Source: a phage. From it: a stretch of DNA of 64,000 nucleotides. The translations under genes and the position numbers were made by a program. Each line of letters opens with the position of its first letter. The first letter of the stretch is position 1. The stretch lies in the sequence record PZ445439.1; one strand, given 5' to 3'. The notes under the pieces were generated by a model. That model saw only the letters and a program-made list of their open reading frames with translations. It made no database searches and had not been told where the DNA came from. Below are positions 1,031-49,997 of the stretch, piece after piece.

Positions 1031-1066
1031 TTTATTCTCCAAATCTGTATCAGTAGTTGATAGTTG

Positions 1067-1098
1067 TATAGTACCACAGAGGAACAGTCTTGTAAAAC
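1067..1098 (-). promoter_or_regulatory. Sigma70-type T4 early promoter (-35 GTTTTAC, -10 TACTAT on minus strand)
   Basis: Member of a repeated 45 bp promoter family; upstream of ORF 794..1030. Confidence 0.6.
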
Positions 1099-1186
1099 AG
1101 TTTTGTGAAAAATTTTTTAGGGAATTCTAAAGGTCCAGAATCATCTGTTTTTCATAAGTATAGATTTATATTACTTGTATGAAAAA

Positions 1187-1215: not shown

Positions 1216-3912
1216 TCAGCCAAACAGGAAGTCTAACGAAGCTTTTTCTTCATAGTCCATACCAGCCGATTCACACATGCCTGCAAGCGGTTTAACAAAC
1301 GATTTTTGGAACAAAGTTGAGTAGTCAATCCAAGACAGTACGTCAGAACGAATTTCTTTTGGAAGTTCTGTACCCGACGGCCAAGCAATGCATTTGTCAC
1401 CAAATGGATTTCCTTCACGCAATGGAAGAACCATTACTTTATTTCCATCCAAAATTGGAGCTACACCTAAACCGCTAACAGCTCGACGATAAGTTAGCAC
1501 ACCACGAATATGGAACGGACATTTAAATCCTGGCCAACCTTTATCATCATATTTCGCTATATCGTTCGCAGTTTTTACTTCAGCAATAACTTTATAGTCA
1601 AGTTGACGATATTCTTTCTCGAAGTTCTTGTAATATTCTTGGACAGACTCTTCACCTTCCTGAAGAATACGACGAATACTTTCTTCGAGAGCTTCTTGGA
1701 CCGCTTTAGGCGTTGAACTCTGCTGAGTTTCCATACCCATGATTTTTAGATGCGGTTCAGCAAATCGCTTATCTTCCATATCATATACGTTCAGAGCATA
1801 ACGCTTTTTCGCTTTCCAAAATCCACCAACGCCCTTTGAACCAAGTGGAGGGCAAGAAATAGCTTCACGGTCCATATGCATCAGATGCTCGCGGTTATTC
1901 ATATAATCACATAACTCACGATATGCAACATCAATCATAGGTTCCATCTTTTTCTTACCGAACTGATTCATGAATTCAACTAAATCGTTCTGCTCTTTGA
2001 ATCGGTCAAGACCAACTTTTTCAATAACTTTATCTACACAAACATATACCGAATCAGTATCACCTGCTGCAATGAAATCTTCGCCATTAGTTCCGCATAC
2101 TTTATTCAGATATTCATTAATTTTACGAGCAATCCACTGAATACCAACTTGGCCGAAAATTGTGATAGCAGTAGCATTTCGCAAATCATAGTAACGGAAA
2201 TGAATATTACCAAGAGCACCGTAAAGGCTGTTAATAAGAATTTTACGGTTCAGCTGATTTGTATTAGCAAGTGTAGCCGCTTTTTCACATTCTTCAATCA
2301 AACTATTGAGAACAGATTCAGTATAATTCGATAGTTCATTTAAGAAATCATCACTGAACTTAACATATCGTTCAACTTCAGGTTTAGTTGAACAAGACCC
2401 TACGCCTTTCATAATAATCTTTTTAATAGCTTCGGCATTCATTTCTTCAGCGAACATTTTCTTTTTCCAATCTTTACGCTGGAAAAATACTTTAGCGATT
2501 TCCTTTGGAATGATACCTTCTTGATGCTTATCATACATCCATCCATTCGGAGAACAAGAATATTCATCACTCGGTTTAGGAGCTGTTCCTGCGATATATT
2601 CATGAATTGGATGAACTTTAAACTGACCACGAATAGTCTCAGGACTAATGTTAACCTGACGAATAATGCTCGGATACAGAGACGTCAAGTCAAAACTCAT
2701 AATATATCGACGAGCAATTGGTTTAGGTTCAAATACAAATGCACCCGGAAAACTTTGTTTAACGTGCGAACCTTGTTGAGGAATAACCTTGTGTTCACCT
2801 TTCAATGAGTTAAAAATAATAGCATCCCAAGTTTTAATAGGACTCATTACACCAGAAAAAGGCATTTTAGCGTAATAAGACATACTTAAAACTAGATCAA
2901 TAAACCCGCGAATTTTATCAATTGCTTGAACTGATTCTACGTCAATGATGTTATAACTAATGTATCGTTGATGATTAGTCTCACGAAGTTTATTAATAGG
3001 ACCGTCGTATGGTAATTTACCTTTTTTGGTTTCATGTTGAGCAACTGATTCCAAAGAGAATGACGGCAAATTAGTAAAAGCAAATTTCTTGTACAAATCT
3101 AAATAATCAAGAATAGATACACCATCAATAGAATAAATTTCTTTGCTGCCGTACATATTTTGAATTAGTTTAGATTTTACTCGACCGATTGGAGAGAAGC
3201 GTTTCATACTACGTTCACCGAGAACCATTTTAACGCGATTCATGATATACGGAACGTCAAATCCCTCAATATTCCAACCAGTAAAAATAGCAGGTCGTTT
3301 CTGTTCCCAGAGATTGATATATTCCATGAGCATATCACGCTCATTATCGAATGGCATATAAATTACTCGGTCAAGAATTTCTTGAGGAACTTCATCACCA
3401 CCTTCACAGTCAAGCTTAGCAGCTAACTTTGCATCCCATTTTGATACTGAACCATACATTGAATTCAAAAGGTCGAAAACATAAAAACGATCATCAATTG
3501 AATCGTAATGAGTGATAGCATCAATTTCATATTCAGCTTTCATTGGGTCAGGAAATTTATCACCAGTAACCTCAATGTCACAGTTAGCTACACGAACAAA
3601 TTTTCGGTCATAAACAATTTCTGAACCGTATGTATCACTGATATAAGCGAGTTTAAAATCGTTCATACCGAGAGCTTCGAGACCGATGTCTTCCATTCGT
3701 TTCATCCAATCTCGAGCATCTTTCATTGATGGAAATTTTTGAGGAGCGCAGTTTTTACCATAGATGTCTTTGTACTTTGACTCTTCCTTACAATGCCTAA
3801 ACATAGTTGGAAGATATTCTACTTCACGAGTACGTTCCTTTCCATTTTCATCAATATAACGTTCAACAATATTATTTCCGACTGTTTCAATAGAGATATA
3901 AAATTCTTTCAT
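1216..3912 (-). CDS. 43: DNA polymerase (family B) with 3'-5' exonuclease
   Basis: 898 aa; exo motif NCDIEV, pol motifs DLTSLYPSII and GDTDSVYV. Confidence 0.97.
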   Translation of the reverse strand: MKEFYISIETVGNNIVERYIDENGKERTREVEYLPTMFRHCKEESKYKDIYGKNCAPQKFPSMKDARDWMKRMEDIGLEALGMNDFKLAYISDTYGSEIVYDRKFVRVANCDIEVTGDKFPDPMKAEYEIDAITHYDSIDDRFYVFDLLNSMYGSVSKWDAKLAAKLDCEGGDEVPQEILDRVIYMPFDNERDMLMEYINLWEQKRPAIFTGWNIEGFDVPYIMNRVKMVLGERSMKRFSPIGRVKSKLIQNMYGSKEIYSIDGVSILDYLDLYKKFAFTNLPSFSLESVAQHETKKGKLPYDGPINKLRETNHQRYISYNIIDVESVQAIDKIRGFIDLVLSMSYYAKMPFSGVMSPIKTWDAIIFNSLKGEHKVIPQQGSHVKQSFPGAFVFEPKPIARRYIMSFDLTSLYPSIIRQVNISPETIRGQFKVHPIHEYIAGTAPKPSDEYSCSPNGWMYDKHQEGIIPKEIAKVFFQRKDWKKKMFAEEMNAEAIKKIIMKGVGSCSTKPEVERYVKFSDDFLNELSNYTESVLNSLIEECEKAATLANTNQLNRKILINSLYGALGNIHFRYYDLRNATAITIFGQVGIQWIARKINEYLNKVCGTNGEDFIAAGDTDSVYVCVDKVIEKVGLDRFKEQNDLVEFMNQFGKKKMEPMIDVAYRELCDYMNNREHLMHMDREAISCPPLGSKGVGGFWKAKKRYALNVYDMEDKRFAEPHLKIMGMETQQSSTPKAVQEALEESIRRILQEGEESVQEYYKNFEKEYRQLDYKVIAEVKTANDIAKYDDKGWPGFKCPFHIRGVLTYRRAVSGLGVAPILDGNKVMVLPLREGNPFGDKCIAWPSGTELPKEIRSDVLSWIDYSTLFQKSFVKPLAGMCESAGMDYEEKASLDFLFG

Positions 3913-39350: not shown

Positions 39351-39929
39351 TTAATTACCACGGGCTGCATTAGCAACGGCGTAAGCGTACTGAACATTAG
39401 CGTCCTTAAACGTACCTTTAGAGGTATCTATTTCTGCCTTAAAGCCGCCTTTAGCCATAACATCGGCAAATTCTTTACGGAAAGCCATTGCATCAAGACC
39501 TTTCCATGATGATTTGTGCTTGGCGAATTCAAGACCAGCGTAGTTGACAGCCTTAGCTAATTTATTATCAATGACCCATTTACCGGCTTTAGGCACAAAC
39601 TTCGGGCCTTTTTGTTTAGAGAACAGTTTTAAATTCCAGCGACGAAGATCACTGTCGGCTTTAACAAAAGCTGCGTCTAAGTTACTAGCAACAACATCTT
39701 CAATATGAGCAAATTTAAGTCCGTCAACTTCAATATTTAAATCGGTACGCCAGCGAAGTCCTTCCCAAGCGAAAGCTTTAAAATCGGAAGCTTTTGTAGC
39801 TAAGTATCGTTCAAGTGGAGCAGTTTTAGGGTCAAAGCCGTTTCCACCACGATAGTTCCACTCGTCCTTATTAATGCCTTTGGCCTTTACTACAGAAGCT
39901 TCAGCAATAAATTCTTGATACGTTTTCAT
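39351..39929 (-). CDS. ipIII: Internal protein III (capsid-targeted)
   Basis: 192 aa; N-terminal MKTYQEFIAE capsid-targeting sequence. Confidence 0.8.
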   Translation of the reverse strand: MKTYQEFIAEASVVKAKGINKDEWNYRGGNGFDPKTAPLERYLATKASDFKAFAWEGLRWRTDLNIEVDGLKFAHIEDVVASNLDAAFVKADSDLRRWNLKLFSKQKGPKFVPKAGKWVIDNKLAKAVNYAGLEFAKHKSSWKGLDAMAFRKEFADVMAKGGFKAEIDTSKGTFKDANVQYAYAVANAARGN

Positions 39930-39954: not shown

Positions 39955-40269
39955 TTATTCTTTAGGGAAGTTTTTAGAGTATGCATCATAAAGTTTATTA
40001 CCGATGCGACGGAAGACTTTAGCTGCAAAACGGTTTTCAGGGTTTTTAATCATGATTTGCATCATGTAAGTTCCTGCATCCGAAAGAGCTTCTTCATAGT
40101 ACCCATTAATTTCTTTAAGAGTCCTACGTTTACCGCCAGGACCGTCAACAGTAATTTTCCATTTACCTGTAGAAGTGCGGCTCGGTGGCTCAACTTGTTC
40201 AATCCAAATATAACCACCTTCAACGCGTTGGTTGGCGGATTCTGCAATAAATTCTTGATACGTTTTCAT
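39955..40269 (-). CDS. ipII: Internal protein II-like (capsid-targeted)
   Basis: 104 aa; MKTYQEFIAE N-terminus. Confidence 0.7.
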   Translation of the reverse strand: MKTYQEFIAESANQRVEGGYIWIEQVEPPSRTSTGKWKITVDGPGGKRRTLKEINGYYEEALSDAGTYMMQIMIKNPENRFAAKVFRRIGNKLYDAYSKNFPKE

Positions 40270-41071: not shown

Positions 41072-41874
<803 letters not shown>

Positions 41875-44788: not shown

Positions 44789-44965
44789 TTATACTCCGGA
44801 TAGTTTGTAAACTATTTTAACATCGCCTTTTGCTGCTTTATAACCTTCAGCCCAAGATATAACAGAGTTTTTATCTGAAGATTCAAATTCTGGCATTGGG
44901 CTTTCGCCAATGTTCACACAATATGTTTCTTCATTTTCGTCGAACCAAATAATTAAAGTAGTCAT
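44789..44965 (-). CDS. Hypothetical 58 aa protein, not in ORF track
   Basis: ATG 44965 to TAA 44789; read by hand. Confidence 0.3.
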   Translation of the reverse strand: MTTLIIWFDENEETYCVNIGESPMPEFESSDKNSVISWAEGYKAAKGDVKIVYKLSGV

Positions 44966-45033: not shown

Positions 45034-45309
45034 TTATTTCATATTATTGAAATATTCTTCTGCGATTTCGTCGTTATCATGGTAAACTTTAGAAGACAGT
45101 TTAACATAACCTTCAGCAGCGAACATGTTAATCACAACCTTTACAGTATACCACTGACCGTCTTCATTACCCATTACTGCATAGGTTTCAAACATCGGAT
45201 GGTCAGGACCGATAACTTTAATATCATTCACCGTACGACCAAAATCTTCTGAAACACATTTCATAAAGAAGTTGAACAGTTCACCGTAATTATCCATTTC
45301 GTTCTCCAA
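45034..45309 (-). CDS. Hypothetical protein
   Basis: 91 aa ORF. Confidence 0.55.
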   Translation of the reverse strand: MENEMDNYGELFNFFMKCVSEDFGRTVNDIKVIGPDHPMFETYAVMGNEDGQWYTVKVVINMFAAEGYVKLSSKVYHDNDEIAEEYFNNMK

Positions 45310-45338: not shown

Positions 45339-45370
45339 GTATAGTACCATGGAAGAACAGGGATGTAAAC
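45339..45370 (-). promoter_or_regulatory. Early promoter
   Basis: Repeat-family member. Confidence 0.6.
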
Positions 45371-45503
45371 AGTTTTGTGAAAAAATTTTTAAAAAGTTTT
45401 GGGGAATTCTAGGGCAGGGAGAGGCAATTAAAGGATAGGATAATATATTATAAAGGGTAGAAACTAAATGATGCCTAGAGAGGCCCGGAAAGGCTTAGAT
45501 ACC

Positions 45504-45534
45504 AAAAAGCCCCAACCTTTCGGCTGAGGCTAAG
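45504..45534 (-). terminator. Terminator-like hairpin, copy 1 of a 31 bp direct repeat
   Basis: AAAAAGCCCCAACCTTTCGGCTGAGGCTAAG; one mismatch to copy at 46059. Confidence 0.55.
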
Positions 45535-45538
45535 AATG

Positions 45539-46012
45539 TTATTTGATTTGTTTAGCAGACCAAATGCGGTCTTTAATAATTTTTTGGATGTCTTCAACAT
45601 ACTCAAGAGAGTGAACATGCGGGTTATCTTTGAAACTATAAGCACGAGCTAACTTTTGGCCTTCAGTTTTGATTACTAAAAGCTCTTTAAGGATAGCTTC
45701 ATATTTGGAGATAATTCCTTTAACAATATTTTTCTCTTGTGCTACTTTAGGATCTGCTTTAGGAGCAGGTTTACCTGAAGCCTTTGCAAAAGCAGCTCCA
45801 GTAGCAACTAAACTTTTCCAAGCCATACTAACTGCATTTCCCGTAAATCCTTCTGCTTTCATATCGCGAGCAAATTGGAATCGCGATTCATCAGAAGCAT
45901 CTTTATAGGAATATTTACCCGCGGCAATGGCAGCTTTTGCGACAGCTTGAATTTCAGTGCTAGATGCTTCATTTAACACCGCTTCATTTAAAAATTGAGC
46001 ATATGATTTCAT
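45539..46012 (-). CDS. Capsid-targeting-sequence protein (candidate novel internal protein)
   Basis: MKSYAQFLNEAVLNEA N-terminus; late promoter upstream; 157 aa. Confidence 0.6.
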   Translation of the reverse strand: MKSYAQFLNEAVLNEASSTEIQAVAKAAIAAGKYSYKDASDESRFQFARDMKAEGFTGNAVSMAWKSLVATGAAFAKASGKPAPKADPKVAQEKNIVKGIISKYEAILKELLVIKTEGQKLARAYSFKDNPHVHSLEYVEDIQKIIKDRIWSAKQIK

Positions 46013-46048
46013 CTTATTTCCTGTTTTAATTCGTGGTTTTAATATACT

Positions 46049-46056
46049 TATTTATA
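46049..46056 (-). promoter_or_regulatory. Late promoter TATAAATA
   Basis: Upstream of ORF 45539..46012. Confidence 0.55.
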
Positions 46057-46058
46057 CT

Positions 46059-46089
46059 AAAAAGCCCCAACCTTTCGGCTGGGGCTAAG
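46059..46089 (-). terminator. Intrinsic terminator after the tRNA cluster (GNRA-loop hairpin plus U-run), copy 2 of the 31 bp repeat
   Basis: GCCCCAGCC-GAAA-GGUUGGGGC followed by UUUUU. Confidence 0.65.
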
Positions 46090-46129
46090 CCTTGCGGCAA
46101 CCTTGTCGGGGTTCCACCTGCTAAGGCAA

Positions 46130-46402
46130 GTGTTTGTACGAAACGCCGGGATTCGAACCCGGTTACCAAGCAGTTGACGCTACTCAATATTTTTAAAAGG
46201 CCATATCTCGACCATATCCGAACGTTCCGTCAAAAACGCTACTCGGCTTATGGCAAAGATATTTCCTCGAATCGATAATTCGGTGCGCCGTTTCTGCTGT
46301 GATATAAGGGGACATTAACAGATCGTAAAGATTTGTTAATGTCAGTCCTTAAACAGGGAACATCAGTCCGACGACTTACCGGTAGCGACCCGGCTTCTTG
46401 TC
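46130..46402 (-). ncRNA. tRNA-like stable RNA region (T4 species 1/2, rnaC/rnaD-like)
   Basis: tRNA-like T-arm CCGGGTTCGAATCCCGG at 46146..46162 plus acceptor-like 3' end; lies between tRNA-Arg and terminator. Confidence 0.45.
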
Positions 46403-46479
<77 letters not shown>

Positions 46480-46482
46480 TAG

Positions 46483-47148
46483 TTAAAATTTCATTTTTCG
46501 ACCTTTAAACCATCCTTCTGGAATTGGGTCAGTTTTCTTAATACGTTTAGAAACTTTTTCATCTAATGAATGAATCCACATCATACCAAATTGGGAATTC
46601 TTTTCACCTTTTTGGTGATTATTTTTAGCATGAATTTCTTTCATTTTATTAATAGTTTCAGGAGTATGGGTCTTACCCAAGAAAGATTTAGTATTTAAAA
46701 ATTTCTCTCTATACTTAGGATTATCCCAAAGCTGTTTAAACCTTTCTGAACCCATTTTACGATATTTTTCTTTAAGGTCTGGGTCGTTCTCAAATCTGGT
46801 TTTAAAAGCAGCAGCCCCTTTTAAGGAAGCTTCTTTCTTTTTATCCAAATATTCTTTAGTGTTTAAATGGTCCCAACCACCTTCACCACCTAATTTCAAA
46901 TTATAAACATCAGGGCGCTTTAAAAACTCTTCAGTCAAAATATTCTTTTCTGACTCAAACATAGAGGTTTTATCGTCAAAGAACTCTAATATTTCTTTAG
47001 AGAAATTTTCTATACCATACTTGTCTTGGGCTCTTTTTAATAATTTACCAGAACCCATATATCCATCATCTAAATTTTCGGTAGAATGAGCGCCTATATA
47101 GATTTTATTATTAATTTTATTTGTTATTTTATAAGTGTAATGGAACAT
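46483..47148 (-). mobile_element. segB: GIY-YIG homing endonuclease SegB
   Basis: 221 aa; YTYKITNKINNKIYIGA motif; sits inside the tRNA cluster as T4 segB. Confidence 0.85.
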
Positions 47149-47189: not shown

Positions 47190-47261
47190 TGGCCCTGGGT
47201 GGAATTGAACCACCATCTGGCGATTATGAGTCGCTTGCTTGAACCTTCCAGCTACAGGGCC
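47190..47261 (-). tRNA. tRNA-Ile (anticodon CAU)
   Basis: Hand-folded; anticodon loop CUCAUAA. Confidence 0.75.
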
Positions 47262-47262
47262 T

Positions 47263-47338
47263 TGGTGCTGATTGACGGAATCGAACCGCCGACCTTCTCA
47301 TTACAAGTGAGTTGCTCTACCTACTGAGCTAAATCAGC
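47263..47338 (-). tRNA. tRNA-Thr (anticodon UGU)
   Basis: Hand-folded; anticodon loop CUUGUAA; CCA encoded. Confidence 0.8.
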
Positions 47339-47345
47339 GAAATTA

Positions 47346-47432
47346 CGGAGGCGATAGGATTTGAACCTATGAGTCGCCGGAGCGACTGCCGGTTTTCAAG
47401 ACCGGTGCATTAAACCACTCTGCCACGCCTCC
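47346..47432 (-). tRNA. tRNA-Ser (anticodon UGA), long variable arm
   Basis: Hand-folded; anticodon loop CUUGAAA. Confidence 0.8.
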
Positions 47433-47434
47433 AG

Positions 47435-47508
47435 TCTCCGTGGCAGGATTTGAACCTACGACATTCTGCTCCCAAAGCAGACGCTCTACCAAACTGAGCT
47501 ACACGGAG
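47435..47508 (-). tRNA. tRNA-Pro (anticodon UGG)
   Basis: Hand-folded; anticodon loop UUUGGGA. Confidence 0.8.
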
Positions 47509-47520
47509 TAAATTAAATTT

Positions 47521-47592
<72 letters not shown>

Positions 47593-47598
47593 AAACTT

Positions 47599-47685
47599 TG
47601 GTACGAGAAGTGGGACTCGAACCCACAAGGAAATCATTCCGCAGCATTTTAAGTGCTGTGCCTTTACCAATTTGACCATTCTCGC
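47599..47685 (-). tRNA. tRNA-Leu (anticodon UAA), long variable arm
   Basis: Hand-folded; anticodon loop CUUAAAA; CCA encoded. Confidence 0.8.
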
Positions 47686-47686
47686 G

Positions 47687-47759
47687 CTGGGAATAAAGGA
47701 CTCGAACCTTTGCATCTAGCAGTCAAAGTGCTATGCCTTACCAACTTGGCTAATTCCCA
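47687..47759 (-). tRNA. tRNA-Gln (anticodon UUG)
   Basis: Hand-folded; anticodon loop CUUUGAC. Confidence 0.8.
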
Positions 47760-49763: not shown

Positions 49764-49997
49764 TCATTTTTTACGAAAAATTGATTTATTTTCTGCTGCC
49801 CATTTTTCAATAACTGCAGCCGGACCAGTAACAACAATTTTATCACCGTAATCTTCTGCGGCGAGTTGACCGAAATCATCTAATGCATCACGAAGAACTC
49901 CATGAGGCATTTCACCCATTTTATCTTTCTTGCCAGTGTAAATAAACTCAACTTTTACATCAGCAGTTTCAGCAATAAATTCTTGATACGTTTTCAT
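49764..49997 (-). CDS. Internal protein at the ipI locus (capsid-targeted; short variant)
   Basis: MKTYQEFIAE N-terminus; 77 aa from that ATG. Confidence 0.6.
   Translation of the reverse strand: MKTYQEFIAETADVKVEFIYTGKKDKMGEMPHGVLRDALDDFGQLAAEDYGDKIVVTGPAAVIEKWAAENKSIFRKK

Follow-up and report, generated by a model that had tools for sequence, protein, structure and literature searches.

A putative late-gene cassette with an internal-protein-like gene between rnaC and e.8 of T4-like phages, bracketed by a 36-bp predicted terminator repeat

Introduction

The internal protein (IP) genes of T-even phages lie in hyperplastic regions and are flanked by conserved regulatory blocks (Repoila 1994, as cited in PMC2839356 and PMC12373910). 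The role of the capsid-targeting sequence (CTS) and the diversity of internal proteins have been described (PMC3012670), and Ip1-3 are injected and inhibit restriction enzymes of the GmrSD type (PMC12373910). Two Ip loci were given in the 2025 study (PMC12373910), and IP genes were reported to be absent elsewhere in T-even genomes (PMC2839356).

Two other systems are close to the locus described here. PeSL promoter/stem-loop cassettes mediate insertions, deletions and replacements, and sister phages carry empty sites with a single motif (PMC2839356, PMC4122927). Deletions in T4 often involve GGGC/GCCC motifs (PMC2839356). Lambdoid morons are extra genes with their own promoter and terminator, located between genes that are adjacent in a relative (Hendrix 2000, as cited in PMC2839356).

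Organization of the rnaC/e.8 slot

The window, which is the whole stretch of 64,000 nucleotides analysed (PZ445439.1), is a segment of a Tequatrovirus (T4-like) genome. All genes around the slot are on the (-) strand. The features of the slot and its surroundings, from upstream to downstream, are as follows.

47759..47190 (-): seven tRNAs
47148..46483 (-): segB, homing-endonuclease gene, 83% DNA identity to T4 segB
46479..46403 (-): tRNA-Arg
46282..46398 (-): rnaD homolog (T4 species 2 RNA), 84.7% identity to T4 rnaD
46137..46275 (-): rnaC homolog (T4 species 1 stable RNA), 96.4% identity over all 139 nt of T4 rnaC
46136..46090 (-): 47-nt trailer from rnaC to hairpin copy 1
46054..46089 (-): predicted terminator copy 1 (upstream), hairpin 46086..46063 with GAAA loop, T-run 46063..46059
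46049..46056 (-): putative late promoter of the T4 type, TATAAATA, next to the T-run and sharing its first three bases with the repeat end
46017..46022 (-): putative ribosome-binding site AGGAAA, 4 nt before the ATG, read from sequence
45539..46012 (-): gene A, 157-aa ORF, phrog_2280
45968..46012 (-): capsid-targeting-like leader, codons 1-15 of gene A, MKSYAQFLNEAVLNE, with likeness to T4 IPII and IPIII
45499..45534 (-): predicted terminator copy 2 (downstream), hairpin 45531..45508, T-run 45508..45504
45341..45369 (-): early-promoter-like site of e.8, TTTACA, 17 nt, TACTAT, with TG upstream
45034..45297 (-): e.8 homolog, the constant downstream neighbour of the slot, 97.7% identity to T4 e.8, phrog_2678

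According to the T4 annotation, rnaC is the last gene of the tRNA and stable-RNA transcription unit. The flank between e.8 and the terminator showed 95% identity to its T4 intergenic counterpart, and the early-promoter-like site of e.8 belonged to this constant flank and was found in T4 too. The 555-bp unit is probably an autonomous late-gene cassette comprising a late promoter, a leader with ribosome-binding site, a 157-aa CTS gene and an intrinsic terminator of its own, and the slot that holds it would extend from the rnaC terminator to the e.8 early promoter in T-even-type phages.

Elsewhere in the window, positions 1031..1119 showed 83% identity to the beginning of the intergenic region that directly precedes e.8 in T4, and this stretch and the e.8 upstream region may be a shared regulatory block.

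Comparison with described systems

Like the T-even internal proteins, the slot proteins carry a capsid-targeting leader at the N-terminus, with a candidate L/I-x-E cleavage site. The genes are small, dispensable and variable among phages, tandem arrays bring together unrelated or distantly related ORFs with a common leader, and conserved regulatory sequence thought to mediate shuffling lies on both sides of the ORF. The position, however, is different: gene A is located between rnaC and e.8 and not at ipI or ipII/ipIII, the latter lying downstream of e in T4. Identity with the ipI locus was rejected, since in T4 the tRNA cluster separates ipI, which precedes tRNA.4, from this position. In the known IP loci the flanking block is 70 bp long and contains an early promoter and a weak, AT-rich stem-loop, whereas the slot has a strong GC-rich terminator abutting a late promoter. 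The slot proteins also differ in belonging to phrog_2280, being named "hypothetical" among the matches listed, and in that their packaging into the head is predicted here from the leader.

The resemblance to PeSL cassettes (Arbiol 2010, PMC2839356; Comeau 2014, PMC4122927; RB49/phi1) is in the architecture. A single variable ORF stands between two copies of a regulatory motif, the motif contains a stem-loop terminator of the GGGG...CCCC type, and relatives (T4 and T6, compared with the window) have one motif and no ORF. In both systems the cassette appears transcriptionally insulated and is proposed to be gained and lost by homologous recombination within the motif. Unlike PeSL, the repeat consists of a stem-loop, a T-run and 5 further nt and contains no sigma-70-like early promoter. 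The only promoter is the late TATAAATA, which is present in one copy and is not duplicated. Furthermore, the motif occurs at one locus with 1-2 copies per genome (40 sampled rows), instead of being dispersed in hyperplastic regions.

As in lambdoid morons, an autonomous promoter-gene-terminator unit separates genes that are adjacent in relatives. In contrast to morons, the flanking regulatory sequences themselves supply the homology for gain and loss, and the boundaries of the unit coincide with the 36-bp repeat. Gene A is co-directional with its neighbours, its base composition is typical, and GC content, synteny and repeat boundaries all spoke against acquisition from outside. Its promoter would depend on the phage late sigma factor, so no prophage expression is expected in this virulent phage. 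The general phenomenon is established, and what differs here is the locus, the strong-terminator repeat with an unduplicated late promoter, and the restriction of the motif to a single site.

Predicted terminator repeat and putative late promoter

An earlier note on this DNA had described the ORF at 45539..46012 as bracketed by a duplicated terminator, and the near-identical repeats were found as described: AAAAAGCCCCAACCTTTCGGCTGAGGCTAAG at 45504..45534 and AAAAAGCCCCAACCTTTCGGCTGGGGCTAAG at 46059..46089, with one mismatch. The repeat finder extended them to 36 nt (45499-45534 and 46054-46089; 34/36 identical) with a spacing of 555 nt. There were only two copies in the 64-kb window when up to 3 mismatches were allowed, and none in 100 shuffles.

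On the (-) strand each copy comprises a 10-bp stem and a GAAA loop followed by U5, and the single mismatch swaps a C-G pair for U-G, so the stem is kept. The predicted folding energies were -20.6 kcal/mol for copy 1 and -17.6 kcal/mol for copy 2 (z-scores -3.5 and -4.5, respectively), and none of the shuffled sequences folded as well as either hairpin. With a GC-rich hairpin directly before a U-run, both are predicted intrinsic (rho-independent) terminators. The Rfam scan returned tRNAs only, with no match for the hairpins, rnaC or rnaD. The upstream hairpin, which the earlier note had taken for the terminator of the tRNA and stable RNA cluster, is indeed the predicted rnaC/tRNA-cluster terminator, being located 47 nt downstream of the rnaC homolog and after rnaD, tRNA-Arg, segB and the seven tRNAs. 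It is homologous to the single copy of T4 (L002, 4831-4861). The cassette terminator copies this resident rnaC terminator, and hence a 36-bp direct repeat brackets the cassette.

Among 50,697 phage records, the hairpin was found in 694 records at 1151 places. No more than two copies per record were seen among 40 sampled rows, in which the motif was confined to the rnaC/e.8 locus, so roughly 457 records would have two copies and 237 one copy (approximate figures). In phage a48 (L041, OQ067375), the downstream hairpin of gene A, just after locus position 1962, reads AGCCCC-AACCTTTCGGCT-GGGGCT. The tip of this hairpin is inverted, its core of 12 nt being the usual AGCCGAAAGGTT in reverse complement, and the upstream copy is normal.

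The late promoter proposed in the same note, TATAAATA between the upstream copy and the ORF, was located at 46056..46049 (-), 36 nt before the ATG. As TATAAATA was no commoner in the window than chance (11 found vs 10.75 expected), the promoter call rests on its position and its conservation in relatives. The position was kept in Tequatrovirus, Mosigvirus HX01, the L009 and L011 contigs, and the JS98-like and Jiaodavirus loci, and the surrounding leader varied. Some gene A alleles had AATAAATA in place of TATAAATA. In phage a48 the late promoter was mutated to TATAAATT.

The following order of events is proposed. The copy 1 hairpin would end the transcripts of the tRNA/rnaD/rnaC cluster, and the abutting TATAAATA would start gp55-dependent late transcription of gene A. 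The copy 2 hairpin would then end the late transcript and shield the e.8 unit from read-through, leaving the early e.8-e.1 unit undisturbed.

Occupancy states of the slot

The earlier reading of an insertion by recombination between terminator copies would have been contradicted if all related genomes carried the gene with both repeat copies and none had an empty site. An empty-site variant does exist: in T4, T6, PST, RB6, ACG-C40, and W143, one terminator copy joins both outer flanks exactly. The T4 site consists of the rnaC trailer, GTTAGCCCCGACCGAAAGGTTGGGGCTTTTT, and then GGTATCTAAGCC... of the e.8 flank, and its single hairpin has the left flank of window copy 1 on one side and the right flank of copy 2 on the other. 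The rnaC-e.8 interval of T4 measures 284 nt and holds no gene, and slot lengths of 255-266 nt were found in PST, RB6, ACG-C40, and W143, compared with 821 nt in the window. In a five-way alignment that compared both window junctions with Killian and with the empty sites of T4 and T6, the homology switched within CTTAGCC...CTTTTTNGTAT.

The Tequatrovirus slot was found in the states 0, A, B, and A+B, with 0, 1 or 2 cassettes and A preceding B; these four states mark gene A as dispensable and variable among close relatives. Gene B encodes a CTS-bearing protein of 187 aa that starts MKTYAEFLTEAAKLPSE, and it comes directly after the gene A terminator. It is preceded by AATAAATA and followed by the hairpin CCCTATC-TAAAT-GATAGGG-CTTTTT, which rejoins the common flank GGTATCTAGG. 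Gene B stood alone in Killian and, judged by slot length, in Shfl2 too. The cassette terminators end GGGCTTTTT, and every cassette boundary in the window, T4, Killian, OE5505, L004, and ECML-134 fell just after ...GGGCTTTTT.

As IMG/VR scans yielded no more than 10 and 14 loci, the survey was based on the phage collection of GenBank. Junction-specific queries of its 50,697 phage records gave counts that are approximate, the database being redundant. The junction of gene A with the e.8 flank (state A) was present in 275 records, and the A/B junction (state A+B) in 125. Gene B was found in 165 records, which leaves about 40 with B alone. In total, about 400 database phages had gene A at junctions of the Tequatrovirus type. 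The window state was the commonest and the T4 state a minority, within the limits of these approximate counts from a redundant database.

Among the loci read, no association was observed between cassette state and the presence of segB. At the segB position, GiZh, RB6, ACG-C40, and OE5505 have tRNA-Asn, tRNA-Tyr or tRNA-His genes instead. In some records, such as OE5505 (L030, MK373785; locus 1414..2536; proteins P0006 and P0009), genes A and B were split by homopolymer frameshifts, and truncated gene A products occurred in other phages. The split or shortened genes are either sequencing errors or decaying cassettes. In a T4-like contig (L016, IMG/VR UViG 2706795408; excerpt positions 1100-1800 of 2400 nt), rnaC was replaced by TATAAATA and an ORF of 127 aa (MLTYAEFLNRNTITESVLTEAGK...) whose start is CTS-like. 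The terminator and the 3' trailer of rnaC remained in place, as did rnaD upstream.

Gene A protein and its leader

In the gene A product, a capsid-targeting-like leader precedes a helical N-domain, which a Pro/Lys/Ala linker joins to a conserved C-domain that is helical too. It had been called internal-protein-like in the earlier note, and the name is justified because the N-terminus fits the capsid-targeting sequence of T4 internal proteins. The leader reads MKSYAQFLNE/AVLNE/A, compared with MKTYQEFIAE/A in T4 IPII and IPIII (slashes, cleavage sites), and the match spans about 10-15 residues. There are two candidate prohead-protease sites in the leader, LNE/A after residue 10 and again after residue 15. 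A gp21-type L/I-x-E followed by a small residue thus closes the leader, and an equivalent site was present in all alleles and paralogs. The motif MK[ST][YF]x[EQ]F had five matches in six frames of the 64-kb window, and four of them were in known IP loci (ipII/III, ipI). Three of the four other CTS ORFs of the window matched PHROGs named internal virion or head protein.

These further CTS-leader ORFs on the (-) strand were at the classical IP loci (39351..39929, 39955..40269, 41072..41353, and 49764..49997). Downstream of gene e they encode CTS proteins of 192 aa (IPIII-like), 104 aa and 93 aa, and at ipI a protein of 77 aa that resembles IpVI. The extended leader FLxExxLNEA is common to gene A and the 93-aa protein.

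In Pfam, no family was found for genes A, B and D (the last a family member of 205-208 aa in other genera), except for a sub-threshold Cytochrome b562 match for B. In PHROGs the only match was phrog_2280, with "unknown" as its function label; A, B, and the 205-aa protein all matched it, which indicated that the slot carries distant paralogs. The AlphaFold2 model of gene A was all-helical with two domains and of mediocre confidence (pLDDT 73). Foldseek with this model gave nothing below E = 0.4 against PDB, and against BFVD it gave family members and an uncharacterised Serratia phage PS2 protein only. Homolog searches showed a very small family, restricted to T4-like phages, with 14 clusters at 90% identity and 13 representatives out of 1.84 billion, and all named homologs among the matches listed are "hypothetical". 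The supplements of PMC12373910 contained no sequence like gene A or gene B.

The leader would take the gene A protein into the prohead core, where the gp21 protease would remove it, and the mature protein would be packed with the DNA and then injected. We infer all four of these processes, namely late transcription, termination at either hairpin, packaging, and cleavage, from the DNA letters. Packaging and injection are somewhat favoured, and this remains at the level of suggestion because the rest of the gene A protein gives no functional clue.

It is also conceivable, but rather unlikely, that the ORF encodes a late protein that is neither packaged nor injected, for instance an assembly or regulatory factor, with a functionless CTS likeness inherited via cassette shuffling. 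The matching residues are only 10-15, Pfam gave no family and the fold search no informative match, and different genes have a conserved 5' module in common, made up of terminator, promoter, leader and first codons, which therefore could travel as a recombination linker. However, no allele or paralog had lost the MK[ST]Y-x-[EQ]-F core or the L-x-E/A site, in spite of synonymous saturation between genera, and elsewhere in the window the motif occurred only in the two IP loci. Late timing, as suggested by the promoter, also fits prohead assembly. If the gene A protein is not packaged, the slot would be an ordinary presence/absence polymorphism in a known plastic region.

Evolution of the slot

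Gene A was present in most Tequatrovirus records, and related genes occupied the same place in other genera. The rnaC terminator was followed by an allele of 154 aa (about 75% identity) in Mosigvirus SA35RD and Dhakavirus IME341; in SA35RD it also stood between two hairpin copies, which were more diverged there. Mosigvirus HX01 and JS98-like phages had the 205-208-aa family member (D) behind the same hairpin and TATAAATA, and Jiaodavirus KEN39 had a 177-aa distant homolog behind AGCCCCGTCTTCGGACGGGGCTTTTTAGTATAAATA. Between gene A alleles dS exceeded 1, and dN/dS was about 0.15 in the N-domain and 0.03 in the C-domain. Gene A is therefore a real gene under purifying selection with deeply diverged alleles. 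No GC anomaly was detected in gene A (37.1% vs genome 34.9 +/- 3.2%), and its divergence between genera was similar to that of the neighbouring e.8.

Exchange between lineages was evident too. Alleles typical of other genera were found within Tequatrovirus flanks at the loci L005 and L006 and in a48, with the changeover at the terminator/late-promoter boundary. Gene A of L009, compared with that of L007, showed 96.6% DNA identity in the C-terminal 69 codons and 66.7% in the N-domain, and this mosaic points to a recombination breakpoint in the Pro/Lys/Ala linker. In neighbour-joining trees of the two flanks the slot states were interleaved, which fits recurrent events or free recombination.

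The earlier note had explained the arrangement as a moron-style insertion by recombination between terminator copies. The sites found across the population are exactly those that homologous recombination within the repeat would yield, namely two-copy occupied sites and precise one-copy empty sites. The insertion of a moron was not supported. A gene A or close allele stands at the same place in Mosigvirus and Dhakavirus, a distant homolog follows terminator and TATAAATA in Jiaodavirus, and in Tequatrovirus the gene is in most records, has ordinary GC and has alleles with saturated synonymous sites. The occupied state is probably old, given that several Tevenvirinae genera have the module of terminator, late promoter and gene. 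The junctions alone do not fix the direction, loss or gain. The empty site of T4 and T6 is more likely a loss by deletion between direct repeats, as gene A is syntenic in other genera, has typical GC and is under purifying selection with diverged alleles. Alleles and whole cassettes were apparently exchanged through homologous recombination, and such shuffling fits better than moron accretion.

A recent moron-type acquisition, in which a T4-like empty site gained a foreign promoter-gene-terminator unit and the resident terminator was duplicated, has a low probability. It would agree with the precise one-copy empty site in T4, T6, PST, RB6, ACG-C40, and W143, and a circular intermediate with one terminator copy would yield the exact structure, as modelled for PeSL mini-circles (PMC2839356). 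Nevertheless, gene A is the Tequatrovirus majority (roughly 400 records vs a few tens empty), and the synteny, the GC content, the e.8-like divergence between genera and the synonymous saturation described above all run against a recent arrival. The unit cannot come from outside the phage group, because its late promoter needs a T4-type gp55. As for a convergent origin of the two hairpins through selection for one strong terminator, with no duplication and no role in gain or loss, both copies do look like functional terminators and GNRA loops on GC-rich stems are a common design, but it is already contradicted by the junction alignment and highly improbable: the identity (34/36) goes beyond the stem-loop, into CTTAG 5' of it and NGTAT behind the T-run, shuffles yield no comparable match, the cassette B terminator (CCCTATC-TAAAT-GATAGGG) is quite different, the empty-site breakpoints are exactly inside the repeat, and the motif occurs only at the rnaC/e.8 locus, once or twice per genome.

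A possible third internal-protein locus

In the part of the literature that was searched, mostly more recent papers, no mention of an IP-like gene between rnaC and e.8 was found. Since PMC2839356 and PMC12373910 name only two, the slot looks like a third Ip locus. A further reading can be put forward as a speculation, possible but doubtful. The rnaC/e.8 slot would be a third, unlisted T-even IP locus, overlooked since T4 and T6 lost the gene; the phrog_2280 proteins (A 157, B 187, D 205-208 aa) would be packed via the leader, injected, and counter host defence as Ip1-3 do against GmrSD; and whole cassettes would be exchanged preferentially at the GGGC/GCCC terminator hairpins. GGGC/GCCC motifs are indeed contained in the cassette hairpins.

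If a third slot is real, it adds two or three further candidate injected proteins at a position that is occupied in most natural Tequatrovirus isolates and empty in T4 and T6. The slot is a very clean natural case of cassette gain and loss via a 36-bp terminator repeat, with four occupancy states, and it could serve for the direct measurement of modular shuffling.

The neighbouring e.6-e.8 slot was also polymorphic. An unrelated 58-aa ORF (phrog_5461; window 44789..44965 (-)) was found there in the window, PST, RB6, and W143, compared with e.7 (111 aa) in T4, and GiZh had no annotation at this position. The T4 e.7 gene was flanked by GTTTACA early-promoter starts.
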